64,000 nt of DNA from Acidimicrobiales bacterium (GTDB lineage Bacteria; Actinomycetota; Acidimicrobiia; Acidimicrobiales; Aldehydirespiratoraceae): contig OZ220747.1 of the NCBI GenBank assembly GCA_965117015.1, forward strand, positions 3,086,921 through 3,150,920, read 5' to 3'. The stretch's first letter is position 1. Each line of letters starts with the position of its first letter. The position numbers and the translations under genes were made by a program. Positions 1 through 44,401 of the stretch are shown one piece after another. Below the pieces are notes generated by a model that worked only from the letters and a program-made list of their open reading frames with translations, was not told where the DNA came from and searched no databases.

Positions 1-373
1 AGTTCTCGTAGAGGCGCACCACCCTCGACGTCTCGCCGGCCGCGCTCAGCAGGCGGTCGGCGTCGTCGAGGTTCAGCGACATCGGCTTCTGCAGCGACAC
101 GTGCAGGTCGCAGCCGATGGCGAACGCGGCGATCTCGTAGTGGAGGTGGTGCGGGACGATTATCTCGACCAGGTCGACCAGGCCCGACTGGCACAATTCG
201 CGGTAGTCCTCGAAGATCGTGGCGTCAGGAAGCCCCCACTGGCGCCGCTTGGACGCCGCGTTCTCCGGCTCGGTGTCGCAGAGCGCGACGACGGCCGCAT
301 CGTCGCGCTCCCGGTACCCGAGAACGTGCAGGTCGGAGATGCGCCCGCAACCGATGATCCCGACCCGCAGCAC
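1..373 (-). CDS. Gfo/Idh/MocA family oxidoreductase, N-terminal part (3' end outside window)
   Basis: Manual reverse translation from a GTG at 373 gives VLRVGIIGCGRISDLHVLGYRERDDAAVVALCD...IIVPHHLHYEIA. This is the Rossmann GxGxxG N-terminus typical of the family. It starts 2 nt after the stop of the upstream permease gene (same operon). Confidence 0.7.
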   Translation of the reverse strand, partial: MLRVGIIGCGRISDLHVLGYRERDDAAVVALCDTEPENAASKRRQWGLPDATIFEDYRELCQSGLVDLVEIIVPHHLHYEIAAFAIGCDLHVSLQKPMSLNLDDADRLLSAAGETSRVVRLYEN

Positions 374-375
374 GC

Positions 376-1296
376 CTACTCCTTCAGGGCCCCGGACAGC
401 AGGCCCCGGACGAAGTGCTTCTGGAAGACGAAGAAGATGACGACGGTGGGGATGCTGGCGATGACCGCCAGCGAGGCCTGGGTTCCGTAGGCCACCGTGA
501 ACTGGCCCTTCACGTTGAGCAGCCCCAGCATGATGGTGGCCACGTCGTCCCGGGCGCTGGTGAACACCAGCGGGTAGAGGAAGTCGTTCCAGATGAACGT
601 GAACTGCAGAGTGGCCAGGGCGGCCAGCGCGGGCCGGGCCAGCGGCAGCATGACCCTCCAGAAGACCTCGCCCTCGTTGGCGCCGTCGATGAGGGCCGCG
701 TAGCGCAGCGAGTCGGGGATCTGCTCGAAGAAGTTCCGCATCACCAGCGTGCACACCGAGAACCCCACCGCGGAGTGGATCAGGATCATGGGCCACAGGG
801 TGTTGAGGAGGTCGAGGCTCCTGAACATGGTGAACAGGGGCACCAGCAGCACCTGGGGCGGGACGAACAGGCCCGAGACGATGATCAGCTGTATGGCGGT
901 GCCGCCTCGGGGCCTGAACTTGGCCAGGGCGTACCCGATGAGCGTGCCGCCCGCGATGGAGACGGCCACCGCCGGGATGGCCACCTGGAACGAGTTGATC
1001 AGGTAGCGGACGGTGTTGGCCGTGCTCCACACGTCGACGTAGTTGGCCAGGGTGAGGTTGCCGGTCAGTGCCCAGATGCCGCGTTGGGCGATCTCGGTGT
1101 TGGTCTTGAGCGAAGTCGCCAGCACGCCTGCCACCGGCACCAGGTACAACGCCACGAACACGGCGATCAGCACCATCCCGGCGCGCCGTCGCAGCGTGCG
1201 GCCCCGGGGGCCCGCGCCGTGTTCGGGCACGGTGCTGCCGGCGCTGCCGGCCCCTTCGGTTCTGCCGGCGGCCAGCGAGGCGGTGCTAGTCGACAT
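376..1296 (-). CDS. carbohydrate ABC transporter permease (MalG/UgpE-like)
   Basis: 306-aa ORF with multiple hydrophobic helices and a sugar-permease EAA-type loop region (RYAALIDGANEGEVFWRVMLPLARPAL). Overlaps the upstream permease gene by 11 nt. Confidence 0.85.
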   Translation of the reverse strand: MSTSTASLAAGRTEGAGSAGSTVPEHGAGPRGRTLRRRAGMVLIAVFVALYLVPVAGVLATSLKTNTEIAQRGIWALTGNLTLANYVDVWSTANTVRYLINSFQVAIPAVAVSIAGGTLIGYALAKFRPRGGTAIQLIIVSGLFVPPQVLLVPLFTMFRSLDLLNTLWPMILIHSAVGFSVCTLVMRNFFEQIPDSLRYAALIDGANEGEVFWRVMLPLARPALAALATLQFTFIWNDFLYPLVFTSARDDVATIMLGLLNVKGQFTVAYGTQASLAVIASIPTVVIFFVFQKHFVRGLLSGALKE

Positions 1297-2161
1297 AGCT
1301 GCCTCGCCTGCCCCACCAGGTCAGACCGCCGACGACGACCAGGGTCATGGCGAACAGGATCAGCGACACCGCGCTGGCCAGCCCCTGCTCGTGCTGGCGG
1401 AACAGGATGCGCCACACCAGCATGGGCATCGTCTCGGTCTCGCGGACCGGCCCGCCCTGGGTCATGGCGAACACCAGGTCGAAGTTGCGCAGCGAGTTGA
1501 TGGCGATCAGCGACAGCACCACCGTCGTGATCGGCCGCAGCAGCGGCACGATCACCCGGCGGAACACCTGGAATTGGCCGGCTCCGTCGACCCTGGCCGC
1601 CTCGACCAGCTCGCCGGGGATGGACGTGAGACCGGCCAGGTAGAGGATCATGGCCAGCACGGCCTGCTGCCACGCCCAGGCGATGAACACCGCCCACAGG
1701 GCGGTCGAGCGGTTGGCCAGCCACGCCTCCTCGAGGCTCTCGAGCCCGACCAGCCCCAGCATCTGGTTGATCAGTCCGTCGCCGGGCTGGTAGATCCAGA
1801 TCCAGACCTGGCCGACCACCACCAGGCTGATGGAGATCGGCACGAACAGCGCCGACTTCATGATGGCTGCGAAGCGGGTGTTGGCCTGCAGCATCATGGC
1901 GATCCCCAGTCCCAGCGCGGGCGGGATCAGCGCGCCGAACAGCGTCCACACCAGCGTGATGCGGATCGACTTGCGAACGTGCTCGTTGGTGAAGGCCTCG
2001 ACGAAGTTGTCGAAGCCGACCCACTGGCTGGTCTGCCCCAGGATGTTGGCGTCGGTGAAGCTGAGCCGCAGGGCCATGGCCGTGGGCACCACCACGATGG
2101 CGGTGAACAGCAGTATGGGCGGTCCCATGAAGAGAATGGCCCAGCGGGTTGTCGGCCTCAT
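1286..2161 (-). CDS. carbohydrate ABC transporter permease (MalF/UgpA-like)
   Basis: 291-aa ORF, membrane protein, with motif EAARVDGAGQFQVFRRVIVPLLRP typical of CUT1 permeases. Confidence 0.85.
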   Translation of the reverse strand: MRPTTRWAILFMGPPILLFTAIVVVPTAMALRLSFTDANILGQTSQWVGFDNFVEAFTNEHVRKSIRITLVWTLFGALIPPALGLGIAMMLQANTRFAAIMKSALFVPISISLVVVGQVWIWIYQPGDGLINQMLGLVGLESLEEAWLANRSTALWAVFIAWAWQQAVLAMILYLAGLTSIPGELVEAARVDGAGQFQVFRRVIVPLLRPITTVVLSLIAINSLRNFDLVFAMTQGGPVRETETMPMLVWRILFRQHEQGLASAVSLILFAMTLVVVGGLTWWGRRGSYVD

Positions 2162-2222
2162 CCGCCGTCTCCTAGACGATGCCTAGCGGGAAACTATCGA
2201 CCGACCGCGGACTGCGGGGCAG

Positions 2223-2266
2223 CCGGCGGTGCCGGACCCGTGGGGGACGAGGTCCGGCACCGCCGG
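2223..2266 (-). other. intercistronic stem-loop (16-bp perfect stem, 12-nt loop) between the SBP and permease genes
   Basis: CCGGCGGTGCCGGACC (2223-2238) is the exact reverse complement of GGTCCGGCACCGCCGG (2251-2266). Confidence 0.5.
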
Positions 2267-2341
2267 TGGAACCGGTTCGAGCCGGCGAGGAGGGCGGCCG
2301 GATTCCGCGGGTCGCGGCTGGCGCCCCTCCGGCTCGACGCG

Positions 2342-3616
2342 CTAGCCCGCGAAAGCGGCCTGGGCGTCGGACTGGGCGCTCGACAGGAGGTCGGCGTAGC
2401 CCGACGGGTCGTCCATGAAGGCCTGGAACATGTCCAGACCGACCTCGGCCACGGGCGGAGGTGTGGCCAGGTCGTAGTTGAACGAGTAGGAGTCGGCCTT
2501 GCCCACTTCCACCAGCGCCTTGGCCATGACCGGGTTGAGCTGCGTGGTGTCGGCGTTGGAGTTCGGCGGCAGCGCCCCCTGCTCCAGTGCCCACGTGAGC
2601 TGGTTGCCGGGATCGGCGTAGTGCTCCAGCAGCAGCATGGCGCCCTCGGCGTTGGCTGCGTCGGCCGACAGGGCCCAACCGTCGATCGGTCCCAGGGCGG
2701 CGTTCTCGACCGCGGGATCCAGCACCGGGAAGTTGAAGAAGTCGTAGTCGGTGACCGGTTCGAGGCCGATGCCGTTCCAGTAGCCGGTGATCCATGTGCC
2801 CATGAGGGTCATGGCCGCCTCACCGTTGGCGACCTGGTCGGCGGCGTCGGTCCAGGTGTAGGCGTTGGCATCGTCGACGAAGAATCCCGAGTCCACCAAG
2901 CCCTTCCAGAGTTCCATCGCCTGGACGACCTGCGGATCGGTGTACGACGCCTCGCCAGACATCAGCTTGGCCCGGTAGTCGGGCCCGGCCGTGCGCAGGA
3001 TGAGGAAGTCGAACCAGAACTGGGCCGGCCAGCGGTTCATCGAGCCGAGGGCGATGGGCTTGACCCCGCTAGCGGCTATCTGCTCGGCAGCTGCGAAGAA
3101 CTCTGGGGCGTTGGTGGGCATCGAGGTGACCCCGGCCGCCTCCATCACATGGGGGTTGTAGAAGAAGGCCACGTAGTGGAACCCGAACGGCAGCAGGTGG
3201 GGTTCGCCGCCGTGGATCCCGGCGTCGACCAGGGCCTGCGGGAAGTTGTTCCAGACGTCGGCGTTGTCGAAGACCTGGGTGATCGGCTGGAGATGGCCGT
3301 TCTCGAACACCGACTGGGTCCGGGCTCCGGCCCAGTAGGAGAACACGTCGGGCGGCTCGCCGCCGGCCAGGGCGACGAGGATCTGGTCCTTGAACGCCTC
3401 GTGCTCGATGGGGCTGACGACGGCCTCGCCGGCCTCGAACGTGGCGTTGACGTCGAGGATCCCCTGCTGGCCGAGGTCGGATCCGTAGTAGTGGGCGACT
3501 TCGACTTGGCCGGCGCCTGGGTCTTCGCTGGTGCCGCTGCACGCGGCAGCCACGAGGGCGACTATCGCGATGAGAGCGAGCGCGTAGCTACGTCGAATCT
3601 TGGTGAGTCTGGTCAT
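2342..3616 (-). CDS. sugar ABC transporter substrate-binding lipoprotein (family 1 SBP)
   Basis: ORF 2342..3688 trimmed to the internal ATG giving MTRLTKIRRSYALALIAIVALVAAACSG (signal peptide plus lipobox Cys). The body resembles extracellular solute-binding family 1. RBS-like AGAGGGG lies upstream. Confidence 0.85.
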   Translation of the reverse strand: MTRLTKIRRSYALALIAIVALVAAACSGTSEDPGAGQVEVAHYYGSDLGQQGILDVNATFEAGEAVVSPIEHEAFKDQILVALAGGEPPDVFSYWAGARTQSVFENGHLQPITQVFDNADVWNNFPQALVDAGIHGGEPHLLPFGFHYVAFFYNPHVMEAAGVTSMPTNAPEFFAAAEQIAASGVKPIALGSMNRWPAQFWFDFLILRTAGPDYRAKLMSGEASYTDPQVVQAMELWKGLVDSGFFVDDANAYTWTDAADQVANGEAAMTLMGTWITGYWNGIGLEPVTDYDFFNFPVLDPAVENAALGPIDGWALSADAANAEGAMLLLEHYADPGNQLTWALEQGALPPNSNADTTQLNPVMAKALVEVGKADSYSFNYDLATPPPVAEVGLDMFQAFMDDPSGYADLLSSAQSDAQAAFAG

Positions 3617-3635
3617 GTGTTCCCCTCTTGGAATC

Positions 3636-3666
3636 GGTCCAGGCGCGGCCTCCCCCGCGCTGGACC
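3636..3666 (-). other. hairpin in the 5' leader of the SBP gene / downstream of the aldehyde dehydrogenase gene
   Basis: GGTCCAGGCGCGG ... CCGCGCTGGACC, a 12-bp stem with one bulged G and a 6-nt loop. It ends 20 nt upstream of the SBP ATG. Confidence 0.4.
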
Positions 3667-3668
3667 GG

Positions 3669-3696
3669 ACTCTAGCAAGTGGTGCCAAATAGTCAA
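3669..3696 (-). promoter_or_regulatory. candidate promoter of the CUT1 sugar-uptake operon
   Basis: The minus strand reads TTGACT-16 nt-TAGAGT (-35 at 3691-3696, -10 at 3669-3674), just upstream of the leader hairpin. Confidence 0.35.
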
Positions 3697-3736
3697 TGCT
3701 GTTGCGAGATGATCAACCGTCTGTCGGCTCAGCTTC

Positions 3737-5191
3737 TCACGCCGGTGCGACGTTGATGTACTTGACGACGGTGAACTCGGCTACGCCCTCGGCGCCGCCC
3801 TCGCGGCCGAAGCCGCTGTGCTTGATCCCGCCGAAGGGTGCCTCGGCCAGCGCGATGGCGAAGTCGTTGATGCCGACCATGCCCACCTCGAGGCGGTCGG
3901 CCACGTCGAGGCACCGCTGCAGCGACCCGCCCAGCACGAAGCCGGCCAGCCCGAAGTCGGTGTCGTTGGCGATGCGCACCGCGTCGTCGAGGTCGTCGTA
4001 GGCGCGGATCGGTGCGATCGGCCCGAACGGCTCGGCCACCATGATCTCGGTGTCGAGGTCCACGTTGGTGAGCACGGTGGGCTCGAACCACCAGCCGGCG
4101 TCCCGTTCGATCCTCCGGCCCCCGGACTCGACGACTGCTCCGTCGCTCACCGCGGAGGCCACCAGCTGCTCCATGGCCTGAAGGCGCCGCTCGTTCTGCA
4201 AGGGGCCGAAGTCGCAGGACGGGTCGTCGCCGGGGCCCATGGCCAGCGCTTCGGTGGCGGCCACGAAGCTGGCCACGAACCGGTCGTGCAGGGCCGCAGG
4301 CACCAGGAACCGGCTGGGCGAGATGCACACCTGCCCGGCGTTGCGGAACTTGCCCCTCGCCGCGGTCTCGCCGGCCCACTCGGGGTCGGCGTCGTCGAGC
4401 ACGATCACCGGCGAGTGGCCCCCCAGCTCCAGCGACACCGACTTCAGTTGCTTGGACGCCTCCTCCATGATGTGGCTGCCCAACGGAACCGAGCCGGTGA
4501 GGGTCACCTTGCGCACCCGGGGGTCGGCGAGGATCATCTCGGAGATCATCGCCGGGTCGCCCACCAGCACGTTGACGACCCCGGCCGGGATGCCGGCGGC
4601 CTCGGCAGCCTTTGCCAGCCACAGGGCCGCGGTGGGCGTCTCCTCGGCCGGCTTGACGATGATGGTGCAGCCGGCCGCGGTGGCTGCGGCGATCTTGCGG
4701 GACGGCAGCAACGCCGGGAAGTTCGACGGAGCGAAGGCTCCCACTACTCCCACCGGCTCGCGCTGCACCAGCAGGCGCCGGCCCGCGCCCCGGGCCGGGA
4801 TCACCCGTCCGTAGATGCGGCGGGCCTCGTCGGCGCACCAGTCGAACTGGTCGGCCGCGGCCGCGACCTCGCCCTCGGCCTGGGCCAGCGGCTTGCCCTG
4901 CTCTGCGGTCACCGACGCGGCGATGTCGGCGAGATGGTCGCGGATGTAGGCGGCCGCATCCCGCAGATGCTGGGAGCGGGCCCACGGGTCGGTGTTGCGC
5001 CAGGACTGGAGAGCGCCGGCGGCGGCGTCGAGGGTCTCGGCGACCTCGGTGGGCGTGACCGTTGCGACTTCGGCCGCCGTCGATCCGTCGGCCGGATTGA
5101 CCACCGCGAGACGTGGGCCGCTGCCGCCCCAGACACCGCGGAGATAGGACGAGTCTGGCGTCACCGACCCATTCTGCCTTACCGGACTCAC
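3737..5191 (-). CDS. NAD(P)-dependent aldehyde dehydrogenase (succinate-semialdehyde dehydrogenase-like)
   Basis: 484-aa ORF with ALDH hallmarks: ELGGHSP (catalytic Glu region), GQVCISPSRF (catalytic Cys), PFGGIKHSGFGREGG. GTG start; exact start uncertain. Confidence 0.85.
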   Translation of the reverse strand: MSPVRQNGSVTPDSSYLRGVWGGSGPRLAVVNPADGSTAAEVATVTPTEVAETLDAAAGALQSWRNTDPWARSQHLRDAAAYIRDHLADIAASVTAEQGKPLAQAEGEVAAAADQFDWCADEARRIYGRVIPARGAGRRLLVQREPVGVVGAFAPSNFPALLPSRKIAAATAAGCTIIVKPAEETPTAALWLAKAAEAAGIPAGVVNVLVGDPAMISEMILADPRVRKVTLTGSVPLGSHIMEEASKQLKSVSLELGGHSPVIVLDDADPEWAGETAARGKFRNAGQVCISPSRFLVPAALHDRFVASFVAATEALAMGPGDDPSCDFGPLQNERRLQAMEQLVASAVSDGAVVESGGRRIERDAGWWFEPTVLTNVDLDTEIMVAEPFGPIAPIRAYDDLDDAVRIANDTDFGLAGFVLGGSLQRCLDVADRLEVGMVGINDFAIALAEAPFGGIKHSGFGREGGAEGVAEFTVVKYINVAPA

Positions 5192-5208
5192 AGAACGAGC
5201 GCGAGAGG

Positions 5209-5257
5209 GAACTTCAAGGAGTTAGCCACACCAGAGGTGGTTAACCCATTGAAGTTC
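5209..5257 (+). repeat. 49-nt nested-palindrome intergenic element, copy A
   Basis: GAACTTCAAGGAGTTAGCCACACCAGAGGTGGTTAACCCATTGAAGTTC. Same length and same termini as the copies at 15891-15939 and 43554-43602. Confidence 0.85.
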
Positions 5258-6083
5258 GGCCCTCGGCGTCCAGGGCCTGGGGTGCGCCGGGATCGGTGAT
5301 CCACTCGGTCCAGGATCCGTCGTACACGGCGACGTCGTCGTGACCGGCGATGGCGTAGGCCAGGGCGGTGCCGCAGGCGCCGACCCCGCCGCGGCAGTAG
5401 GCGATAGTGGGCTCGGGGGCGCACGCGCCGGCTGCGGCCAGGCGCCGGCGAGCCTCCTCGGGCTCCGCCCAGGTGCCGTCGGCGCCGGTGAACTCGATGC
5501 CGGGCGCGGTGATGCTGCCGGGGATGGCCCCGCCGTCCTGCTGGCGGGCTCCGGCCATGCGCCCGTCCACCAGGCGGGTCGAGGTGCCCAGGGCCGCGAG
5601 CACGTCCTGGTGGGTCGCGTAGAGGCTCGGGTCGTAGCGGGGGGTGAACTGCGCCCGCGGGTAGCTAGGCACCTTGTCGTCGGTGGGGCGTCCTTCGGCC
5701 TGCCATTTGGTGATGCCGCCGTCAAGCACGGCCACGCGGGTGTGTCCGTAGACCCTCAGCGCCCACCACGCCCGGGCCGCCACCGTCACGTGCTGGTCGT
5801 CGTAGGTCACCACGAAGGTGTCGTCCCCGATGCCGCGAGAGGCCATGGCGTCGGCGAAGCGTTCCGGACCGGCCAGCATCCACAAGTCGGGCCGCTCAGG
5901 ATCGGCCAGGTCGGTGTCCCAGCGGGCGTGCACCGCGCCCGGGATGTGGGCCTTGGCGTACTCATCGTCGCCGTTGCGCATGTCGAACGGGCGCAGGTAC
6001 CAGCGGCAGTCCACGATCCTCACACCCGGGTCGTCCAGGTGCTCAGCCAGCCACCGCGTCGACACCAGAGGACCTTGTGTCAT
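5241..6083 (-). CDS. sulfurtransferase with tandem rhodanese domains (thiosulfate/3-mercaptopyruvate type)
   Basis: 280-aa ORF. N-terminus LVSTRWLAEHLDDPGVRIVDCRW and active-site loop YCRGGVGAC are typical of SseA/rhodanese proteins. Confidence 0.85.
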   Translation of the reverse strand: MTQGPLVSTRWLAEHLDDPGVRIVDCRWYLRPFDMRNGDDEYAKAHIPGAVHARWDTDLADPERPDLWMLAGPERFADAMASRGIGDDTFVVTYDDQHVTVAARAWWALRVYGHTRVAVLDGGITKWQAEGRPTDDKVPSYPRAQFTPRYDPSLYATHQDVLAALGTSTRLVDGRMAGARQQDGGAIPGSITAPGIEFTGADGTWAEPEEARRRLAAAGACAPEPTIAYCRGGVGACGTALAYAIAGHDDVAVYDGSWTEWITDPGAPQALDAEGRTSMG

Positions 6084-6101
6084 GGCCAGAGCTTCGCAGA
6101 C

Positions 6102-6207
6102 GGGGCCGGGGCCGTCACGTCCGGTAGCTGCCGCGGACCGTCACGAGCCGAGGCGGGGCCGGGGCCGTCATCTCCCGAAGCAGCCGGGGACCGTCACGAG
6201 CCGACTA
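6102..6207. repeat. imperfect tandem duplication (2 x 53 nt) with CCGTCA recurring every 26-27 nt
   Basis: Copy 1 at 6102-6154 and copy 2 at 6155-6207 both begin GGGGCCGGGGCCGTCA and end GGACCGTCACGAGCCGA. Copy 2 contains the stop and last codons of the LLM oxidoreductase gene. Confidence 0.75.
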
Positions 6208-7210
6208 CGGCCGGGCGCACCTGCTCGGCCAGCAGGCGGACGCCCTCGTCGCGGTCGGGTCCGAACGTGTACCAGGCCAGGGGCAGGTCGAGACCGGCGT
6301 CGGCGAACAGCTCCAGGCCCTCAATCACGTCGTCGGGAGTGCCGGCCACGCCGAAGGTGTCCACGAGGCTGTCGCTGACCACCGCCGCTCCGGCCTGTTC
6401 ACCGCCCTCAGCGACCGCGGCCCGGACCGCGGCCACGGCATCGGGGTCGGCACCGGCCTCATCGACCACCACGCCCTCGACCCGGGCCAGGTAGTAGGCC
6501 AGCACTTCCTTGACCGCGTTGCGGGCCTCGCTGCGGTCCGGGCCGACGCTGGTCAGCACGTTGGCGCTCAGCAGCAGGTCGTCGACGTTGCGACCGGCCC
6601 GCTGCGCCCCGGCGGCCAGCCGTTCTCGGGCCCACCGGGTGTAGCCCACGCTGGTTATGGCGCCGAGCTGGACGCCGTCTGCGAACTCGCCCGAGACCTC
6701 CATCATCCGCCGGCTGACCGCGCCCACGTCCACGGGCACCGGCTCCGGCGGCGGCCGGTCCAGGCGGAGGCCCGGTGCCACTGAGAACGTCGTTGGAACG
6801 AAGTCCAGCTCCTCGCCGGCGGTGAGGCAGCGCACCGCCCGCACCGCCTCGACGGTGTTGGTCAGGGGTCGCCACCCGGGCGGGTCCATGCCGAAGCGCC
6901 TCACCGTCCACTCCGCCGCGCCAAGCCCGTACCGCAGCCGGCCCGGCCCGATGTCGGCCAGGGTGGCCGCCTCGAGGGCCAGCAGTACCGGGTTGCGGAA
7001 CACCGGGTTGGCCACCCCGATGCGCACGGTGACCCGCTGGGTGGCCTGGAGCGCGGCGGCTGCCACCGGCATCACCGAGTTGAACAGCCGGCTCTCGGGC
7101 AGCGACACCTCCTCGAAGCCGAGGCGGTCCGCGGCGGCCACCACGGCTAGCGTGTCGGCGACGGGATCCTCGTTAGACAGCGAAAGGCCCAGGCCTCGGA
7201 ACCCGTTCAT
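6194..7210 (-). CDS. LLM-class (luciferase-like) flavin/F420-dependent oxidoreductase
   Basis: ORF 6194..7267 trimmed to the ATG giving MNGFRGLGLSLSNEDP. Luciferase-like TIM-barrel sequence features are present (LGFEEVSLPESR, GLGAAEW). Confidence 0.75.
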   Translation of the reverse strand: MNGFRGLGLSLSNEDPVADTLAVVAAADRLGFEEVSLPESRLFNSVMPVAAAALQATQRVTVRIGVANPVFRNPVLLALEAATLADIGPGRLRYGLGAAEWTVRRFGMDPPGWRPLTNTVEAVRAVRCLTAGEELDFVPTTFSVAPGLRLDRPPPEPVPVDVGAVSRRMMEVSGEFADGVQLGAITSVGYTRWARERLAAGAQRAGRNVDDLLLSANVLTSVGPDRSEARNAVKEVLAYYLARVEGVVVDEAGADPDAVAAVRAAVAEGGEQAGAAVVSDSLVDTFGVAGTPDDVIEGLELFADAGLDLPLAWYTFGPDRDEGVRLLAEQVRPAVVGS

Positions 7211-7245
7211 CTTCCTCACGATCGTCACGGCGACAGGAGCTGCGA

Positions 7246-7824
7246 ATGTGGATCTCCACGATTCCATACGACGAGGCTGAGGGCGAGTTGAGAGCCCACT
7301 ACGACCGCCAGGCCCGAGCGCTGGGCGAGCCCACCGAGATGACCATGGCCGGATCGTTGCACCCCGCGCTGGTGGCGGCCCGCCTCAATCTGTACGCGGC
7401 CACCGAGAAGTGCCCGTCGCGGCTGACGCCCCATCAGCGCAACCTGATCAGCTTCGTGACGTCGGCCATCAACGGCACGATTCACTGCATGAGCCAGGTC
7501 ACGATCAAGCTGCGCCAGACCGGGCTCGACGACGAGGCCATCGCCAAGCTGGCCGCCGACCCGGACTGCTTCGAGTCACTGGGCCTGTCGCCGGCCGACG
7601 CCGCGATGGTGCGCTACGCGGTGAAGCTCACCCGCTCCCCTGCCTCGGTGACCGAGGCCGACGTTGATGAGCTGCGGGCCGCGGGGTTCGACGACCTCGA
7701 CATCATCGACGCCAACTCCCAGTGCGCTCACCTCAACTATGTGAACCGGGTGGCGATGGGGTTGGGGATCCACTCCGTCGTGGACCCTGACTTTCCTGCT
7801 TACTCGGCTCTTCCGCAGGGATAG
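7246..7824 (+). CDS. carboxymuconolactone decarboxylase / AhpD-like peroxidase-related protein
   Basis: 192-aa ORF with RBS CAGGAG upstream. Sequence (SAINGTIHCMSQV, DIIDANSQCAHLNYVNRV) resembles the AhpD-fold peroxidase-related family. Confidence 0.7.
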   Translation: MWISTIPYDEAEGELRAHYDRQARALGEPTEMTMAGSLHPALVAARLNLYAATEKCPSRLTPHQRNLISFVTSAINGTIHCMSQVTIKLRQTGLDDEAIAKLAADPDCFESLGLSPADAAMVRYAVKLTRSPASVTEADVDELRAAGFDDLDIIDANSQCAHLNYVNRVAMGLGIHSVVDPDFPAYSALPQG

Positions 7825-7870
7825 AGCGGGCTGTCCCGGCCGGCGGGTCCTGTCGCCGGGCTCCGTTCGG

Positions 7871-7896
7871 CCGACGGGGCTTCGCCCCATTGTCGG
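7871..7896. terminator. hairpin between convergent genes
   Basis: CCGAC GGGGC TTC GCCCC ATT GTCGG. No clear U-tract. Confidence 0.35.
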
Positions 7897-7941
7897 CCGC
7901 CCGGACCCGTCGCCACCCCCCGGCCTCTCGGGACGGGGGCC

Positions 7942-8868
7942 TCACGCATTGTTGAAGATCTCGGCGCTTTGGCGGATGTGGTCGGCTGCGGTGGCTTCGT
8001 CGTTCATGGGGAGCATGAAGATGTCGAAGCAGTGGCGGAGTTCGCCGATCCGGGCTGAGACCTCGGCCGGGGTTCCGGCCACGCCGTAGCGGTCGACTAG
8101 GGCGTCGGGCAGCAGCCTGGCCGCGTCGTGCATGCGGCCAGCCAGCATCAGGCGGCGGACCTCGGCGGTGGTGGCATCGTCCAGGCCGTCGGCCCGCCTG
8201 ACGTCGGCGGGGGCGTCCACCGCCATGTAGGAGAAGTGGGGCAGGACCCGGCGGCGCTCGGTGTCGTTGTAGGCCAGATAGGCGGACCAGGCGATCTGGG
8301 CGGAACCAGCCGAGCGGATCCGGTCGGCGGCAGCAGGCAGATCGGCGGGTGGTGCGGCCGACAGGATCACGCAGTCGGAATGCTCGGCCGCTAGGCGCTG
8401 CACTCTGGGCCCCCGGCCGGCGACCGCGATGGGCATCGGCTCATCGGGGTGGAACCACGGCAGGGACGCCTCCCCCACCGTCTCGCCTGCCAGCAGGCGC
8501 TGGTTGAGCTCGAACGTCTCGCGTAGCGCGGTGAAGGGGCGCTCCGGGTCCATCCCGAGCGGCTGGAGGACCCGGCTGCCGCCCACGCCGAGACCGTGCA
8601 TCACCCGGCCCGGTGCCAGCTCCGCCAGAGTGGCGATGGCGGCCGCGGTGGCCACCGGGTGCCTGCTGAAAGGGTTGGTGATGGCTGGGGCGACGGTCAA
8701 GCCGGTGGCCTCGACGATGGCCGTCAACGCCACATAGACGTCGCGCTCGGTGCCCTCGTCGGCCACGAAGCACATCTCGGCTCCCAGCGACTCTCCCAGG
8801 CGGGCCAACTCGACCAGGCGGCGAACCGGCTGGGTGGGCTCGAACCACACTCCCCACCGCACACTCAT
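7942..8868 (-). CDS. LLM-class F420-dependent oxidoreductase
   Basis: C-terminal 308 aa of track ORF 7942..9501, starting MSVRWGVWFEPTQPVRRLVELARLGESLGAEMCFVADEG. The upstream extension is Arg/Gly/Pro-rich shadow sequence and overlaps a real gene in another frame. Confidence 0.75.
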   Translation of the reverse strand: MSVRWGVWFEPTQPVRRLVELARLGESLGAEMCFVADEGTERDVYVALTAIVEATGLTVAPAITNPFSRHPVATAAAIATLAELAPGRVMHGLGVGGSRVLQPLGMDPERPFTALRETFELNQRLLAGETVGEASLPWFHPDEPMPIAVAGRGPRVQRLAAEHSDCVILSAAPPADLPAAADRIRSAGSAQIAWSAYLAYNDTERRRVLPHFSYMAVDAPADVRRADGLDDATTAEVRRLMLAGRMHDAARLLPDALVDRYGVAGTPAEVSARIGELRHCFDIFMLPMNDEATAADHIRQSAEIFNNA

Positions 8869-9467
8869 GAGGCTTGCTCCTCCCGCTCGGCCCGGCCTTG
8901 GCGCAACGACTCGCGGCCCAACGGTATGTACTGCACCGCGGACAGGTAGCTGTAGACGAGCGAGGGGACTGCGCAGACCCATCCCGCGACCCTGAAGCCG
9001 TCGGCCACCGCTATGTCGGAGGCGCCGGCCAGCAGCAGGGGGAAGCAGAAGTACAGGCCGAAGGTGGCGCACTTGCCCCACCAGGTGACGTCGATCGGTT
9101 TGGCGCCCAGCGACAGCAGCACCAGCCCGACGACGGCGACGATCCCCTCCCTGGCCAGGGTGAGGATCACCAGCCACCAGGGCACCGAGCCATCGATGCC
9201 GACCGCGAAGACTCCGACCAGCAGCACGGCCCGGTCGGTGATCGGGTCGAGCATCTTGCCGACCTTGCTGACCGAGTTGAAGCGTCGGGCCCACCAGCCG
9301 TCCACCCAGTCGGTGGCGCCGAGCGCTCCCCACAGCAGCGCCGCCCCCCAGCGGTCCCCGGAGCTGAACAGCAGCCACAGGAACCAGGGGATGCAGGCCA
9401 GCCGGGCCGCCGAGATCAGGTTGGGGACGGTGAGGATCCGGTCCTCGCCGGTGCTCGGGTCGGCCAT
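8865..9467 (-). CDS. CDP-alcohol phosphatidyltransferase family protein (PgsA-like)
   Basis: 200-aa membrane ORF with signature DWVDGWWARRFNSVSKVGKMLDPITDR (D-x2-DG-x2-AR...G-x3-D-x3-D). ATGA overlap with the downstream gene. Confidence 0.85.
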   Translation of the reverse strand: MADPSTGEDRILTVPNLISAARLACIPWFLWLLFSSGDRWGAALLWGALGATDWVDGWWARRFNSVSKVGKMLDPITDRAVLLVGVFAVGIDGSVPWWLVILTLAREGIVAVVGLVLLSLGAKPIDVTWWGKCATFGLYFCFPLLLAGASDIAVADGFRVAGWVCAVPSLVYSYLSAVQYIPLGRESLRQGRAEREEQAS

Positions 9468-9491
9468 GGGTCTTCAGCCTACGATCAGGGG

Positions 9492-9893
9492 ATGCCCACA
9501 ATCTTCACCCGGATCATCGACGGCGAGATACCCGGCCGGTTCGTGTGGCGCGACGACACCTGCGTCGCGTTCATGGACGTGCGGCCCCTCAACCGGGGCC
9601 ACGTGCTGGTGGTGCCCCGAGCGGAGGTCGACCACTGGGTGGACCTCGACGCCGACACCGTGGCCCATCTGATGGCGGTGGCCCACCGGGTGGCCGAGGC
9701 CCAGAGGGCCGCCGGGCTGGCCCCGGACCGGGTGGGCCTGATGATCGCCGGCTTTGAGGTGCCCCACGTGCACGTCCACGTCGTGCCCATCTCGACCATG
9801 GCCCATCTCGACTTCTCGAACGCCGACACCAGCCCCGACCCCGCCGACCTGGACGCGGTCGCCACCTCGCTGCAGGAGCACCTCAGCTACTGA
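9492..9893 (+). CDS. HIT family (histidine triad) nucleotide hydrolase
   Basis: Starts MPTIFTRIIDGEIPGRFVWRDD. Histidine triad HVHVHVVP is present. Confidence 0.85.
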   Translation: MPTIFTRIIDGEIPGRFVWRDDTCVAFMDVRPLNRGHVLVVPRAEVDHWVDLDADTVAHLMAVAHRVAEAQRAAGLAPDRVGLMIAGFEVPHVHVHVVPISTMAHLDFSNADTSPDPADLDAVATSLQEHLSY

Positions 9894-10605
9894 AGATGTC
9901 GAGCGGTTCGGACGGCTCGATGAGGTGGGCGCCGTTGTTGCGGGCGCTGTTCACCTCGGTCGACACCGGATGCATCCGGATCAGTCCCGGCGGCGCGGGC
10001 ACGAGCAGGCTGGTGGCGGTCTCAGCGTCGCTGATGGCGGGGTCCAGCCATAGGTCCCAGGCGCTGGGCGGCAGCACTACCGGCATCCGGTCGTGCACCT
10101 TGGCCATCGCCTCGTTGGCCTCGCAGGTGATGATGGTGCACGAGTGCAGCTCGAAGGGCTCGCCGTCGTCGTCGGGGTTGTCCTTGTCGCGCCACTGCTC
10201 CCAGAGGCCGGCGAAGGCGAAGGGCTCGCCGTCGGGACGGCTGATGAACATGGGCTGCTTGTGCTTGGTGCCCTCCAGGCGGCGCCATTCGTAGAACCCG
10301 TCGGCCGGGATGATGCAGCGCCGGCGGGTGAGGGCCACCCTGAAGGCGTTCTTGGTGGCCACCGTCTCGGCCCGGGCGTTGATCATCCGGTTGCCGATCT
10401 TGGGGTCCTTGGCCCAGAACGGCACCAGTCCCCAGTGCAGCCCGTCGAGGCTCCGGGCCCCGTCCCGCTCCCGCACGGCGTAGACGGTCTGCGTCGGCGC
10501 GACGTTGTGGTTGGGCGCCAGAGTGAGGTCGGGCGGCGGTGCCGCGGCACCGAAGTAGTTGGCCAGCTCGTCGGGCGGGGTGGCCGACACGTAACGCCCG
10601 CACAT
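9883..10605 (-). CDS. SOS response-associated peptidase (SRAP/YedK family)
   Basis: 240-aa ORF beginning MCGRY (catalytic Cys2) with WGLVPFWAKD and FYEW motifs. Confidence 0.85.
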   Translation of the reverse strand: MCGRYVSATPPDELANYFGAAAPPPDLTLAPNHNVAPTQTVYAVRERDGARSLDGLHWGLVPFWAKDPKIGNRMINARAETVATKNAFRVALTRRRCIIPADGFYEWRRLEGTKHKQPMFISRPDGEPFAFAGLWEQWRDKDNPDDDGEPFELHSCTIITCEANEAMAKVHDRMPVVLPPSAWDLWLDPAISDAETATSLLVPAPPGLIRMHPVSTEVNSARNNGAHLIEPSEPLDIFSS

Positions 10606-10616
10606 GGAACCGGAAG

Positions 10617-11687
10617 CTAGCTGGGCCGCGGCGGAGCGATCCGGTCGAGGGCGGCGACGGCCTCGGCCACGATCCGATCGATCAGCTCGGCGCAGGTGGG
10701 CAGGTCGTCAACGACGCCCACGCATTGGCCAGTCGGCAGGACGCCGGCGTCGATGTCGCCGTCCACCATGGTTGCCCGGGTCAGCATGGGGGCGTTGGCC
10801 GCCATCGCCATCTGGCTCCAGGTCAGGTCCTGGCTGCGGCGTATGGCCAGCCCCTCCCGCAGCATCGCCGTCATCGACATGCCGGTGAGGCCCCGGAACC
10901 GCCATGCATTGACCGCGGCCCGTGCCATCCGGGTGATCCGGGCCGATTCCAGCGATTCGACCAGGCGGGTGCGGATCACCCGCTGGGGCTTGCCGTCGAT
11001 GCTGCTCGATACCACGGTGCCGGTGACCGGCGTGCCCAGGTACACCGCCTTGACCTCGTCCGGCACCGTGGACTCGGCAGTGAGCAGGAAGCGGGTGCCC
11101 ATGGCCACCCCGTCGGCGCCCCACGCCAGGGCCGCGGCCAAGCCTCGACCGTCGTGGAAGCCGCCGGCGGCGATCACCGGCACATCCACCGCGTCGAGCA
11201 CCTGGGGCAACAGCAGCGAAGTGGGTATCGAGCCGGTGTGACCGCCCCCCTCGCCGCCCTGGCACAGGATGACGTCTGCGCCGAGTTCGGCCATCTTCTC
11301 GGCATGGCGGCGGGCCCCCACGGTCGGCATGACCAGCACACCGCCGTCCCGCAGCCGCTGCAGCACCGGAGCCGGCGGCGGGCCGGCGAAGCTGGCCACC
11401 CTCACGCCGGCCTCCACCAGGCGGTCGGCCCGGTCGTCCAGGTCGGCCGCGTCGGGGCGCAGGTTCACCCCGAAGGGCTGATCGGTGCGGGACCGGACCT
11501 CGGCGATGGCGGCGTCCATCTCGTCGAGGGTCATGGTGGCCGAGGCCAGGATCCCGAGTCCGCCCGCCGCGGCGGTGCCGGTCACCAGCGACGGCCCGGC
11601 CACCCATCCCATCCCGGTCTGCACAATGGGATAGTCGATGCCGAACAGCTCTGTGGCCCGGGTCCGGAGCCGCTGGTCGACGCTCAC
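10617..11687 (-). CDS. nitronate monooxygenase family (NAD(P)H-dependent flavin oxidoreductase)
   Basis: 356-aa ORF. FGIDYPIVQTGMGWVAG and QGGEGGGHTG motifs are typical of the NMO / 2-nitropropane dioxygenase family. Confidence 0.8.
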   Translation of the reverse strand: MSVDQRLRTRATELFGIDYPIVQTGMGWVAGPSLVTGTAAAGGLGILASATMTLDEMDAAIAEVRSRTDQPFGVNLRPDAADLDDRADRLVEAGVRVASFAGPPPAPVLQRLRDGGVLVMPTVGARRHAEKMAELGADVILCQGGEGGGHTGSIPTSLLLPQVLDAVDVPVIAAGGFHDGRGLAAALAWGADGVAMGTRFLLTAESTVPDEVKAVYLGTPVTGTVVSSSIDGKPQRVIRTRLVESLESARITRMARAAVNAWRFRGLTGMSMTAMLREGLAIRRSQDLTWSQMAMAANAPMLTRATMVDGDIDAGVLPTGQCVGVVDDLPTCAELIDRIVAEAVAALDRIAPPRPS

Positions 11688-11814
11688 GGCTGCACCCTAC
11701 CGGCCGCTCCCCTTCTACTCGGGCGACTCACACGGCCGTCCCCGGCGTGGTGCGGCCAGCCGCCTATCCTGCGAATGCTCTTACAAACGGCGTGCACGGA
11801 AGGGGGTGGACGCG

Positions 11815-12849
11815 ATGGCCCGAAGGCTCACTGAGTTCAGCCACGGCGCTGGTTGAGCCTGCAAGATCGCCCCCGGCGATCTCGCGCACGTGGTGCGCGG
11901 CCTAACCCCTGACCCCCCGCCGGAGTTGCTTGTCGGCCTGGCCACCGGTGACGACGCCGCCGTGTGGCGGATCGGCCGCGGCCGTGCCCTGGTCCTGACC
12001 GCCGACTTCATCACGCCGGTGGTGGACGACGCGCGCACTTGGGGCCGCATCGCGGCCACCAACGCGGTGTCCGACGTGTACGCCATGGGCGGGAGGCCCC
12101 TGCTGGCACTGAACCTGGTGGCCTGGAACTCCGAGGAACTGTCCAACGACCTGCTGGCCGAGGTGCTGGCCGGGGGCGAGGACGCCGCCCGGGCCGGCGG
12201 TTTCGTGGTGGGCGGCGGCCACACGGTCGACGATCCCGAGCCCAAGTACGGGATGGCCGTGGTGGGCGAGGTCAATCCGGGGCGCATGCTCACCAACGCC
12301 GGCCTGCGTCCGGGCAGTGCGCTGGTCCTGACCAAGCCGCTGGGCACGGGGATCATCTCGACCGCCATCAAGCGGGCCGAGGCCCGCCCAGAGGTGGTGG
12401 ACCGGGCCGTCGGGGAGATGACCCGGTCCAACGCCAACGCGGCCGAGGCCGCCATGCGGCACGGGGCCACCGCGGCCACCGACGTGACCGGCTTCGGCCT
12501 GCTGGGCCACGGCCTGCGGATGGCCCAGGAGTCGGGCGTCGACCTGGAGATCTCCGTCGGCGACGTGCCGATCATCGAGGGAGCGCGGGAGCTGGCCGCG
12601 CTGGGCACCGTCCCCGGCGGGACCCAGCGCAACCTCGACTGGGTGTCGCCCCATCTCGACCGCGGCGACGCCGGGGAGGCGGCCGTGACCCTGCTGGCCG
12701 ACGCTCAGACCTCAGGGGGACTGTTACTGGGCATGGTCAGCCACGACGCCGGCCTGGCCGCCGTCACCGAGCTGAGGGCCTCAGGCCACGAGGCCGCCAT
12801 CATCGGCGAGGTCACCGAAGGCTCCGGCCGCATCCGCCTCCAGCCCTGA
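11815..12849 (+). CDS. selD: selenide, water dikinase SelD with in-frame TGA (probable selenocysteine) at 11854-11856
   Basis: Track ORFs 11638..11856 (ends ...MARRLTEFSHGAG-stop) and 11890..12849 are in the same frame. Joined, they read MARRLTEFSHGAG-U-ACKIAPGDLAHV. This matches the SelD N-terminal glycine-rich loop, where the catalytic Cys/Sec sits. The rest is AIR-synthase-like SelD sequence. RBS GGAAGGGGG lies upstream. Confidence 0.85.
11860..11886 (+). promoter_or_regulatory. candidate SECIS hairpin downstream of the selD UGA
   Basis: AGATCGCC (11864-11871) pairs with GGCGATCT (11875-11882). The stem can extend by TGC/GCG across an A/C mismatch. It starts 4-8 nt after the TGA. Confidence 0.5.
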
Positions 12850-12858
12850 GATCGCAGG

Positions 12859-13662: not shown

Positions 13663-13717
13663 GGCCGGATCGTAGCGCCGACCGCTCAGGGGTTCGCCTG
13701 CGCCTGCCGCTGTGCGA

Positions 13718-14872: not shown

Positions 14873-14992
14873 TCGAAACTACCGTCGCCGATTCGGACCA
14901 CTCGTGTGGCACGGGGTGACATCGGCCACATGACGCCGGGCCGATGGTGCGAGACTGGCCGTATCAAGAGCCGTGACAACAGGAGGGCGGTG

Positions 14993-15892
14993 ATGGCTCA
15001 GCGGCTGTGCGAGGGACGGGTGGCGCTGGTCACCGGAGCCAGCAAGGGTGGCACCGGCACGGCCATCGCACTGCGCTTGGCGGCCGAGGGAGCCCGGGTG
15101 GCAATCACGGCCCGCAGCGTCGACGGCTTGGAATCCACCCAGTCACGCATCCGCGATCTGGGCGGCGAGTGTCTGGTGCTGCCGTCGGATCTGAGCGACC
15201 CCTACGGCGCTCGGACGGAGTTGGTGGCCCGCACCGAGGCCGAGTTCGGTCCCGTCGACATCCTGGTCAACAACGCTGCGGCCGGCGGGTACGGCGCTTT
15301 CGAGTCTGTCGGGCCCGAGCGCCTGGAGCGGGCCCTTCAGGTGAACCTGTGGGCACCGTGGGAGCTGATGGCGGACGTCGTCGGCGGGATGCGCGAGCGG
15401 GGCTGGGGAGCGATCGTCAACATCACGACGTTCTCGGCCGAGCTGCCACCCGGTCCGCCGTTCCCGACCAACAAGCCGTCCAAGGCCGGGGCCATGTACG
15501 GGGCCAGCAAGGCCGCCCTGAACCGGCTCACGGTCTCCGTGGCCAGCGAGTGCGAAGGCCAGGGCATCGCGGTGAACGCCCTGTCGCCCCAGGGTGCCAT
15601 CGCCACCCCCGCTCTGGTGGCCGCGGGTTGGGTGGAGGGCGCGATGTTCGAACCGCTGGAGACGATGGCCGAGGCAACGCTGGCCCTGTGCACGGCCGAT
15701 CCTGCGGTGCTGACCGGCCGGATCGCTTTCAGCCTCCAGCTGCTGGTGGAGTTGCAGCGCCCGGTGCTCGACTTGCAGGGTGAGGAGCTGGTGGAGGGCT
15801 GGCAGCCCGAGGACCTGCCCGGCATCATCGCCCGCCAGGAGGAGAGCCTCGCCGGCCGGGGCTGGCCCGACGCCTACCGCTTCGGCCGGTGA
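14993..15892 (+). CDS. SDR family oxidoreductase
   Basis: Trimmed to the ATG after RBS AGGAGG: MAQRLCEGRVALVTGASKGGTGTAIA. NNAA and YGASKAAL catalytic motifs are present. Confidence 0.8.
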   Translation: MAQRLCEGRVALVTGASKGGTGTAIALRLAAEGARVAITARSVDGLESTQSRIRDLGGECLVLPSDLSDPYGARTELVARTEAEFGPVDILVNNAAAGGYGAFESVGPERLERALQVNLWAPWELMADVVGGMRERGWGAIVNITTFSAELPPGPPFPTNKPSKAGAMYGASKAALNRLTVSVASECEGQGIAVNALSPQGAIATPALVAAGWVEGAMFEPLETMAEATLALCTADPAVLTGRIAFSLQLLVELQRPVLDLQGEELVEGWQPEDLPGIIARQEESLAGRGWPDAYRFGR

Positions 15893-15939
15893 ACTTCAAG
15901 CGATAAACCACATCTGGTGTGGCTAACGGCTTGAAGTTC
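15891..15939 (-). repeat. 49-nt nested-palindrome intergenic element, copy B (inverted orientation)
   Basis: The plus strand reads GAACTTCAAGCGATAAACCACATCTGGTGTGGCTAACGGCTTGAAGTTC. Its reverse complement aligns with copies A and C. The first two nt overlap the TGA stop of the SDR gene. Confidence 0.85.
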
Positions 15940-16018
15940 CGGCTGCATCCCGACTCGGCCACCGACAGCGCTCGTGGTGGGCCATGATGGTCACAGCAAG
16001 TCCCAGCAAAGGAGTCGC

Positions 16019-16756: not shown

Positions 16757-16776
16757 CCGCCGAGAAGGAAGGATCC

Positions 16777-34854: not shown

Positions 34855-34940
34855 GGTGTGGTAAAAAACATTTAGCATATATCGCTAGTTACTGCAAATC
34901 TTTTACCATAATGCCGATATATCTGTATGATCTTGCAAGA
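34855..34940. promoter_or_regulatory. AT-rich divergent control region between the SBP operon and the Lrp-type regulator gene
   Basis: Conspicuously low-GC stretch (AAAAAACATTTAGCATATATCGCTAGTTACTGCAAATCTTTTACCATAATGCCGATATATCTGTATGATCTTGCAAG) in an otherwise GC-rich window. Contains the palindrome CTTGCAAG. Confidence 0.45.
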
Positions 34941-40762: not shown

Positions 40763-43503
<2,741 letters not shown>

Positions 43504-43553
43504 GCGCGGCCTGGCCTAAGCGGGTGCGCCGGTAGAGGACGGCATATCGGCCG

Positions 43554-43602
43554 GAACTTCAAGCAGTTAGCCACAATAGATGTGGTTTTCCGCTTGAAGT
43601 TC
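43554..43602 (+). repeat. 49-nt nested-palindrome intergenic element, copy C
   Basis: GAACTTCAAGCAGTTAGCCACAATAGATGTGGTTTTCCGCTTGAAGTTC, starting 51 nt after the katG stop. Confidence 0.85.
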
Positions 43603-43639: not shown

Positions 43640-44401
43640 ATGGCGATGCAGGACCGCAAGATCGCGCTGGTGACCGGTGCCGGCTCCGGCGTGGGCCGGG
43701 CAGCCGCGGTGGCCTTAGCTCGCGACGGCTGGCATGTCGTGGCGGTGGGCCGACGAGCCGACCCGCTGGCCGAGACGGTCGCCGAGTGCGAGCGCGAGGG
43801 CGGCTCCGGCTCGGCCGTGACGGCTGACGTGAGCGACCCGGCCTCGGTCGAGGCCCTGTGCGCGACGGTGCGCGCCGATCACGGCCGCCTCGACCTGCTG
43901 TTCAACAATGCGGGCACGGCCGCGCCTCCGGTGCCGGTCGACGAGCTCGCCGTCGAGCAGTGGCAGCGGGTGGTGGACGTGAACCTCACCGGCTCGTTCC
44001 TGTGCGCCCGGCAGGCGTTCGGGATGATGAAGTCCCAGAACCCTCCCGGCGGGCGGATCATCAACAACGGGTCGGTGTCGGCCCATGTGCCCCGGCTCCA
44101 CAGCGCCCCGTACACGGCCACCAAGCACGCAATCACGGGGCTGACCAAGTCTCTGTCGCTCGACGGCCGGCCCTTCGGCATCACCTGCGGCCAGATCGAC
44201 ATCGGCAACGCCCTTACCCCGCTCACCACCCGCATGAATGAGGGGGTGCTCCAGTCCGACGGCGCCATCCGGCCCGAGCCGACCATGGACGCGGCCGATG
44301 TGGGCCGGGCGGTCGCCTACATGGCCAGCCTTCCCCCCGACGCCAACGTGCTGACGATGACGGTGATGGCCAACGCCATGCCCTTCATCGGCCGGGGCTG
44401 A
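43640..44401 (+). CDS. SDR family oxidoreductase
   Basis: 253-aa [24 protein letters not shown] and YTATKHAI motifs are present. Confidence 0.85.

Follow-up and report, generated by a model that had tools for sequence, protein, structure and literature searches.

The 64-kb window analysed here, a contiguous stretch of 64,000 nucleotides from the genome of an Acidimicrobiales bacterium, carries three copies of a 49-nt imperfect palindrome, which we refer to as T1. These palindromes are likely to be copies of a non-autonomous mobile DNA element, T1 being one lineage of a structure-defined superfamily of 49-50-nt hairpins in a clade of soil Acidimicrobiales. Together with a short conserved flank, the 49-nt hairpin makes up an element of about 60-70 nt. 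It is dispersed and insertion-polymorphic, has conserved ends and a variable centre, lies within the final codons of genes or directly behind them, and is able to truncate these genes. The initial annotation, made from the window alone, had favoured a DNA-level element resembling repetitive extragenic palindromic (REP) sequences or miniature inverted-repeat transposable elements (MITEs) over a gene's own terminator. This proposal is supported by the dispersal of T1 and by the empty orthologous sites in relatives; in addition, the mixed orientation of the copies, the lack of a U-tract and the truncation of a conserved protein C-terminus argue against a terminator belonging to the adjacent gene.

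Copies in the window and their fold

Copies A (5209..5257, plus strand), B (15891..15939, minus strand) and C (43554..43602, plus strand) agree exactly, in position, orientation, length and sequence, with their first description. Chance is excluded as their source. The pattern GAACTTCAAG-N15-45-CTTGAAGTTC has two exact matches in the window against 0.00 expected, copy A deviating from it by one mismatch in the 3' arm, and the 10-mer arm with at most one mismatch has seven hits against 0.88 expected, six of which fall within the three copies. Two covariance models, one of them run with filters off, detected no further copy in the window, and covariance models found none in the 10 kb to its left, as represented in a 99.6%-identical strain. 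The density is three copies in about 74 kb of this genome. Copy C is also present in L042, a 99.6%-identical strain represented by a soil metagenome contig (ENA) that matches the window region. A short-read (Logan) contig of the same strain (L088, positions 1-47) has its end inside copy A, as expected if T1 is repeated and breaks assemblies.

Every window copy folds, on either strand, into a single interrupted hairpin of about 22 bp. Predicted folding energies are -24 to -32 kcal/mol for RNA (z -3.6 to -7.7, both strands) and -12 to -21 kcal/mol for DNA. The terminal inverted repeats are perfect outer arms of 10-11 nt that are kept across copies, and an unpaired position separates the outer from the inner stem. 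With 43-47% G+C, the elements differ from the window as a whole (69%), and the stem is relatively AT-rich (43-55% GC). The inner-stem G opposite T, first noticed in the three window copies, is found in all seven known copies of T1 from five genomes. As had also been noted, only copy C is transcribed in the orientation in which this position would read as G-U.

Copies in other Acidimicrobiales genomes

A scan of 185,579 species genomes (GTDB) with the two-arm pattern returned 24 loci. Four of them (L002, L003, L008 and L009) hold true homologues of T1, all in metagenome-assembled genomes (MAGs) of Acidimicrobiales, L008 and L009 being from Candidatus Aldehydirespirator; the remaining loci are unrelated. 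The initial annotation had regarded a lack of copies in relatives as evidence against a dispersed element, and their presence in four further genomes removes this objection. The outside copies are 49 nt long, share the inner arm and are identical to the window copies at 39-45 of 49 positions (80-92%). In sequence, the window copies resemble one another no more than they resemble those of other genomes (39-45 of 49 positions). Variation is confined to the central 29 nt, a distribution that has to be read with the knowledge that the non-window copies were retrieved via perfect arms.

Each of the four outside copies is placed between unrelated genes, namely LigA and LigB (convergent), phosphoglucomutase (PGM) and Trm112, Ku and LigD, and two glycosyltransferases. 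These contexts bear on the idea that T1 is a binding site on double-stranded DNA, serving either a regulator of dehydrogenase genes (as its operator) or a nucleoid protein. Such a role would agree with the nearly palindromic half-sites and with the position of every window copy 45-80 nt upstream of an oxidoreductase gene (aldehyde dehydrogenase and two genes of the SDR family). In view of the unrelated neighbours in the other genomes, we rejected the operator for dehydrogenase genes. Furthermore, one copy sits between convergent genes, where there is no promoter, the orthologous promoters in relatives are devoid of T1, and the element overlaps the 3' ends of coding regions. We regard a DNA-binding site of either kind as very improbable.

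Another observation concerns the Oscillospiraceae MAG JAAWCD01 (L014, L016, L018, L019, L021, L022 and L023), which carries seven copies of a 53-nt hairpin repeat with the 11-nt arms of T1 (GAACTTCAAGC/GCTTGAAGTTC). The interiors of these repeats vary, their layout is 11+11+9+11+11, and they are bordered by runs of A and of T of the kind seen with bidirectional intrinsic terminators. The likeness of the arms is probably a coincidence of the search pattern, though the combination of shared arms and layout is curious.

Filled and empty sites in syntenic relatives

Syntenic relatives were reached via the proteins flanking each site, and show 84-89% nucleotide identity to the window or 90-96% protein identity in the neighbouring genes. 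Three of them, L043, L044 and L045, align with positions 1-16758 of the window at 84-89% nucleotide identity, and no T1 was found in their 62 kb. Insertion polymorphism, which had been suggested as a check on the mobile nature of the palindrome, is seen at all three window sites. At site A, the orthologous position has no T1 in L043, L044 and L045, where homology resumes on the far side of the element, nor in the closer relative L085, whose spacer holds a different hairpin. Site B is empty in L084, the closest relative (96% protein identity in the SDR protein), and reads CTTCGGCCGG|AGCCACAGCCCTAGGCCATGA. Site C lacks T1 in L081, L082, L083 and L086: there is no hairpin in L081, a different one in each of L082 and L083, and two tandem copies of another 49-nt hairpin in L086. 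The insertion of T1 at the window sites is recent. With all three sites lacking T1 in these relatives, the copies show no conservation of orthologous position; such conservation had been named beforehand as a sign of terminators belonging to the flanking genes.

In L081, TGAGCTTCAAGG at the katG stop codon (9945-9957) matches the T1 arm at 10 of 11 positions; this may be the scar of a lost copy.

Comparison with the relatives also concerns the idea that T1 is a site-specific recombination site, similar to integron attC or to Xer/dif, that borders gene cassettes. Copies A and B do border differences in gene content, the aldehyde dehydrogenase and the SDR of the window being missing in L043 and L045, and the conserved mismatch and the conservation of structure over sequence are both features of attC. 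On the other hand, what is left of the SDR gene and of the aldehyde dehydrogenase region after deletion can still be seen in the relatives; the difference in content is therefore a loss in the relatives and not the gain of a cassette in the window, and a cassette or integron origin for copies A and B was rejected on these grounds. Inspection of the termini, CCGGAAC ... GTTCCGG, shows no agreement with the attC consensus RYYYAAC/GTTRRRY. The copies are solitary, 10-28 kb apart and not arranged in an array, and no integrase is encoded in the window. This is the least probable of the explanations considered here.

Rewritten gene ends

The palindromes had been described as intergenic. This applies to copy C, which lies in the spacer between katG (catalase-peroxidase, 41281..43503, plus strand) and a downstream SDR gene (43640..44401, plus strand). 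Copies A and B overlap gene ends and are thus not purely intergenic.

Copy A is positioned between the genes for a rhodanese (thiosulfate sulfurtransferase-like, 5241..6083) and an aldehyde dehydrogenase (3737..5164), both on the minus strand. The latter is downstream of the element, its called start being 45 nt away, and corresponds to a 475-aa gene call in L087. The last five codons and the stop codon of the rhodanese are encoded by copy A, the TAA lying in the inner arm, and the protein ends in AEGRTSMG* (RTSMG* being T1-encoded), as compared with AEPQS* and similar tails in relatives. Copy B is inserted in the 3' end of a gene for an SDR-family oxidoreductase (14993..15892, plus strand), whose stop codon TGA is made at the junction from the gene's own T and the first GA of the element. 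The truncated protein ends ...FGR* at 299 aa and is without the six C-terminal residues VHSPRP. Most of the 120 listed orthologues are 305 aa long, and HSPRP, mostly as GRVHSPRP, terminates 56 of the 59 for which the C-terminus was printed. The insertion of copy B deleted a well-conserved six-residue tail, which fits a selfish insertion and not the gene's own terminator.

Altogether, five open reading frames (ORFs) end in or at T1: the rhodanese and the SDR of the window, LigA and LigB of L002, and the phosphoglucomutase of L003. The orientation of T1 relative to transcription is mixed. When the element is oriented by its conserved flank, or tail, it is 'sense' in seven of nine co-directional cases, a bias that is not significant (one-sided binomial p about 0.09).

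The best named relatives of the window proteins are from Acidimicrobiaceae MAGs. The SDR gene at 14993-15892 survives in three relatives only as short in-frame deletion remnants of differing sizes (L043 at ~780-860, L044 at ~190-300 and L045 at ~560-660). Downstream of the rhodanese, the window has the aldehyde dehydrogenase alone, L044 has a thiamine pyrophosphate (TPP) enzyme, the aldehyde dehydrogenase and a dihydroxy-acid dehydratase, and L043 and L045 have none of these.

Flanking motif and element boundaries

In four of the seven T1 copies, CGGCCG followed after 0-7 nt by ACTCGG occurs on one side of the hairpin. The tail of copy B, CGGCTGCATCCCGACTCGG (15940..15958, plus strand), contains CGGCCG-N-ACTCGG, the motif that also adjoins T1 in L003, L008 and L009. 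It is not present in the empty site of L084, so that the tail arrived with T1. The flank of copy A, GAGCGCGAGAGG (5197..5208, plus strand), matches the motif weakly and with an uncertain boundary, and may be its counterpart.

Four of the seven T1 copies allow a 3-nt duplication of CCG or GCC; site A, compared with L043, allows none. Precise insertion of 53 nt without duplication fits site A as compared with L043 and was rejected, as it fails at site B given the L084 sequence and the conserved VHSPRP tail.

A wider superfamily of 49-50-nt hairpins

T1 is accompanied by other hairpins of the same format, which were gathered from a hairpin scan of the related loci and from the finds at site C. 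All are 49-50 nt long and have the same layout, with an 11-nt outer arm, an 11-nt inner segment and a 5-nt loop followed by 11 and again 11 nt. Fourteen of them align without gaps but for one column, and T5, G13, T15 and A45 are invariant. Both partners vary in 16 of 20 pairs, and covariation scores 0.53 as compared with 0.06-0.12 in slid controls, a value that is partly circular given that the members had been picked as hairpins; this circularity does not extend to the shared fixed bases and the fixed length. With a model trained on these hairpins, five members outside the training set were found, all of 49-50 nt, at 8117-8165, 8177-8225, 5849-5898 and 2633-2681 of L044 and at 2849-2897 of L045.

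One lineage, T2 (GTTCTGTGAGC...GCGCACAGAAC, also written GTTCTGTGAGCAGATATGCCG...GCGCACAGAAC), occupies three unrelated spacers in three genomes, in two cases as 60-nt tandem units (L086 2873-2981; L044 8117-8225 and 2633-2681; L045 2849-2897). Its units carry an 11-nt tail of the form GTGG-AA-CGG. Further lineages of 49-50 nt with different stems are located at 2804-2852 of L083, ~9912-9960 of L082, 2846-2895 of L085, 6180-6228 and 8249-8297 of L043, 5907-5956 of L045, and 1636-1685 and 5849-5898 of L044. Several of these other lineages sit in spacers where T1 or T2 is found in other genomes, and from the sequences the shared spacers look like hot spots with turnover of elements. In the window itself, 12 nt from copy A, the 10-nt segment GTTCTGTGAG (5187..5196, minus strand) matches the outer arm of T2 from L086, L044 and L045 and is probably a remnant of an older T2 element (chance of such a match estimated at about 0.005).

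Directly beside copy C, CGGCATATC (43540-43548) matches the reverse complement of the T2 inner segment, with a chance estimated at about 0.02. At this level the match is too weak to claim a T2 fragment; it may be the trace of a T2 displaced by T1.

Eleven independent sites of the superfamily were classified by position. Seven are between co-directional genes, four between convergent genes and none between divergent ones; several overlap last codons, and several of the spacers are only 1-13 nt long when empty. This bias towards gene ends may reflect tolerance in a compact genome or, equally, targeting of gene ends.

The same distribution would also fit a hairpin that is mainly an RNA element selected by the host, which dispersal merely supplies: an orientation-tolerant 3'-end hairpin, conserved in sequence, that terminates transcription with the help of a factor, blocks exonucleases or modulates translation or termination near stop codons, similar to the TRIT (Tuberculosis Rho-independent terminator) motif of mycobacteria. 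In line with this, all 11 sites are at 3' ends of genes, four of them convergent and none divergent, the hairpins are very stable as RNA on both strands, and the stems covary. Three diverged genomes have kept the outer stems at the site between SRAP and HIT genes. In the five ORFs described above, the stop codon lies in T1 or next to it, which is comparable with the position of TRIT at about -8 from stop codons (PMC3152330). Against such a role, a canonical intrinsic terminator is not what the sequences resemble, as there is no U-tract, the flanks are GC-rich and a terminator scan gave 0 sites. Close relatives and the window itself have no hairpin at several of the spacers of 1-13 nt, one insertion removed a conserved protein tail, and most transcripts have an A-C mismatch in place of the invariant G-T. 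In M. tuberculosis, TRITs overlap mapped 3' ends only marginally, in 2-4% (bioRxiv 10.1101/2022.06.01.494293). We consider it unlikely that selection on RNA is the main explanation, and it is compatible with mobility rather than exclusive of it.

Similarity to known systems

T1 seems not to have been described previously, as neither Rfam nor the searchable literature contains a description of it. In Rfam 15 no family was matched at gathering thresholds, the only look-alikes being non-significant miRNA-like hairpins at E>1, and literature searches on the T1 sequence and on REP, MITE or REP-associated tyrosine transposase (RAYT) systems in Acidimicrobiia or Actinobacteria returned nothing specific. 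The closest systems in behaviour are the REP/REPIN elements and the mycobacterial TRIT motif.

MITEs such as Correia/NEMIS of Neisseria, RUP and Nezha are typically 100-400 bp long. They share with T1 the non-autonomous nature, the conserved inverted-repeat termini with a drifting interior, presence/absence polymorphism and a location near genes, the ends of which are sometimes altered; T1 is much shorter and has no consistent target-site duplication. The subterminal hairpins of IS200/IS605 insertion sequences and of their miniature derivatives, the palindrome-associated transposable elements (PATEs), resemble T1 in combining an imperfect hairpin with an adjacent short guide or target motif, which is recognised on a single strand, and the T1 flanking motif is reminiscent of this arrangement. 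Their insertion leaves no duplication, and in T1 no consistent one was found. In contrast to T1, which has a single hairpin and for which no TnpA or TnpB was seen in the ~0.3 Mb examined, they carry a different hairpin at each end and use a defined target of 4-5 nt. Integron attC sites are likewise conserved in structure over sequence, contain a strand-defining mismatch and occur at gene 3' ends, but are 57-141 nt long and have R and L boxes, cassette arrays and an IntI integrase, none of which was seen for T1.

REP/REPIN elements of Proteobacteria, mobilised by Y1 transposases of the RAYT (TnpA-REP) type, are short imperfect hairpins dispersed in extragenic 3' regions as lineage-specific families, as is T1. 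They also share with it a conserved stem mismatch, which is needed for REP recognition (PMC3479197), the lack of target duplication (in T1, of a consistent one), the occurrence in clusters or tandems and possible effects on mRNA ends. In Escherichia coli, correcting the mismatch in the REP stem abolishes binding by the RAYT, and a 5' tetranucleotide (GTAG) is required (PMC3479197). The invariant G-T mismatch of T1 parallels this requirement for a mismatch in binding to REP hairpins. The differences are that T1 has no 5' GTAG foot, is longer than typical REPs (49 nt with a 22-bp stem), has an apparently low copy number and occurs in Acidimicrobiia, for which the searchable literature describes no RAYT/REP system and where the ~0.3 Mb examined contained no RAYT gene.

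TRIT is, like T1, an actinobacterial palindrome conserved in sequence, usable in both directions and without a canonical U-tract (PMC3152330). It was reported to have 147 copies in M. tuberculosis and to be restricted to Mycobacterium, and is compared with T1 here by description only, as the text of that report gives no TRIT sequence (PMC3152330). Both sit at or within the final codons of genes, and the means of spread is not known for TRIT either. To our knowledge, insertion polymorphism as seen for T1 has not been demonstrated for TRIT.

Possible mode of spread

We infer that an enzyme acting in trans would generate the copies of T1 from master elements. This enzyme would read the folded single strand, with the hairpin shape, the invariant G-T mismatch, the few fixed bases and the flanking motif serving as recognition features, in a manner resembling the Y1/HUH transposases of the RAYT and IS200/IS605 type. 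Recognition of a single strand is suggested by the fixed length despite differing stems, the small number of invariant bases, the uncorrected mismatch that marks the strand, the asymmetric flanking motif and the lack of a consistent duplication. Insertions would persist only where tolerated, that is, at the 3' ends of genes in a compact genome. Once transcribed, the hairpin would form in either orientation and may secondarily act as a block, stabiliser or attenuator at the RNA 3' end. A secondary role of T1 as a 3'-end block or stabiliser is plausible, and both the convergent sites and the well-conserved outer stems at the SRAP/HIT site speak in favour of it. It is not the whole story, given the mixed orientation, the disruptive insertions and the empty sites in close relatives.

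A number of observations weigh against a mobile element mobilised in this way. Neither a transposase nor a RAYT turned up in the window or the related loci (about 0.3 Mb examined), and the window contains neither separated T1 half-sites nor a parent insertion sequence sharing the terminal repeats. The GTAG foot is absent on either side of all seven T1 copies, whose flanks read (G)GCCG, CCGG(T) or GGCC next to GAAC, and there is no consistent target-site duplication among the copies. Site B is not a clean insertion, having 90 nt as compared with 13 nt in L084, a difference that blurs the exact boundaries of the element. The copy number of T1 looks low, with one strict-pattern copy per genome in the four GTDB species genomes. 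A scan of JGI metagenomes with GAACTTCAAGNNGTTRGCCAC, a strict and probably too strict pattern, yielded 17 loci, all of them chance coding matches and none with the 3' half of T1; a scan of viral contigs gave 35 loci, all AT-rich chance matches, and plasmid BLAST searches gave nothing relevant. The partial circularity of the superfamily covariation belongs here as well. Finally, at the SRAP/HIT site (L043, L044 and L045) conservation is higher in the outer stems than in the sequence on either side of them, which could indicate selection on the hairpin at the level of the host rather than pure selfishness.

Two points are less ordinary than the rest, namely that several lineages share one exact architecture and that the same gene-end spacers are reused. 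In a bolder and rather doubtful proposal, the 49-50-nt hairpins (11+11+5+11+11) would constitute a new class of structure-defined mobile elements in Actinomycetota, handled by one enzyme, neither a RAYT nor a classical IS transposase, that measures and recognises the folded single strand by its fixed length, a small number of unvarying bases, a mismatch marking the strand and a short flanking motif. Such an enzyme would insert or replace elements at hot spots at the 3' ends of genes, and the host would gain interchangeable, 'portable' gene-end hairpins; the mycobacterial TRITs might be the same phenomenon.

Other features of the window and of related loci

Two further palindromes in the window deserve mention. 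A perfect 16-bp GC-rich inverted repeat, CCGGCGGTGCCGGACC N12 GGTCCGGCACCGCCGG (2223-2266), is located between the gene for a solute-binding protein and the first permease gene of an ABC transporter operon. This spacer is the classic position for an intercistronic hairpin that stabilises mRNA. An AT-rich quasi-palindrome (34899-34940) occupies the divergent spacer between an SBP_bac_5 gene (33128-34828, minus strand) and a gene for an AsnC-type regulator (35051-35545, plus strand), and is likely an operator or promoter region. Direct tandem repeats of ~35-60 nt, unrelated to the hairpins, are present in the MFS-to-aldolase and aldolase/AIRS spacers of L043 (~2130-2250), L045 (~1910-2000) and L044 (~2690-2750).

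Significance

Small dispersed palindromes have been well studied in Proteobacteria, in the form of REP/REPIN sequences and their RAYTs, and barely in Actinomycetota, where the origin and function of TRIT are not agreed upon. The T1 sites represent a natural experiment in an uncultured soil lineage, with filled and empty sites in close relatives, rewritten gene ends, lineages that compete for the same spacers and 60-nt tandem units. In practical terms, such elements break short-read assemblies, alter the predicted C-termini of proteins and could serve as strain markers. If the mobilising enzyme were found, it would bring hairpin-directed single-strand transposition, or a new mechanism, to a new phylum, and may also explain TRIT-like motifs.

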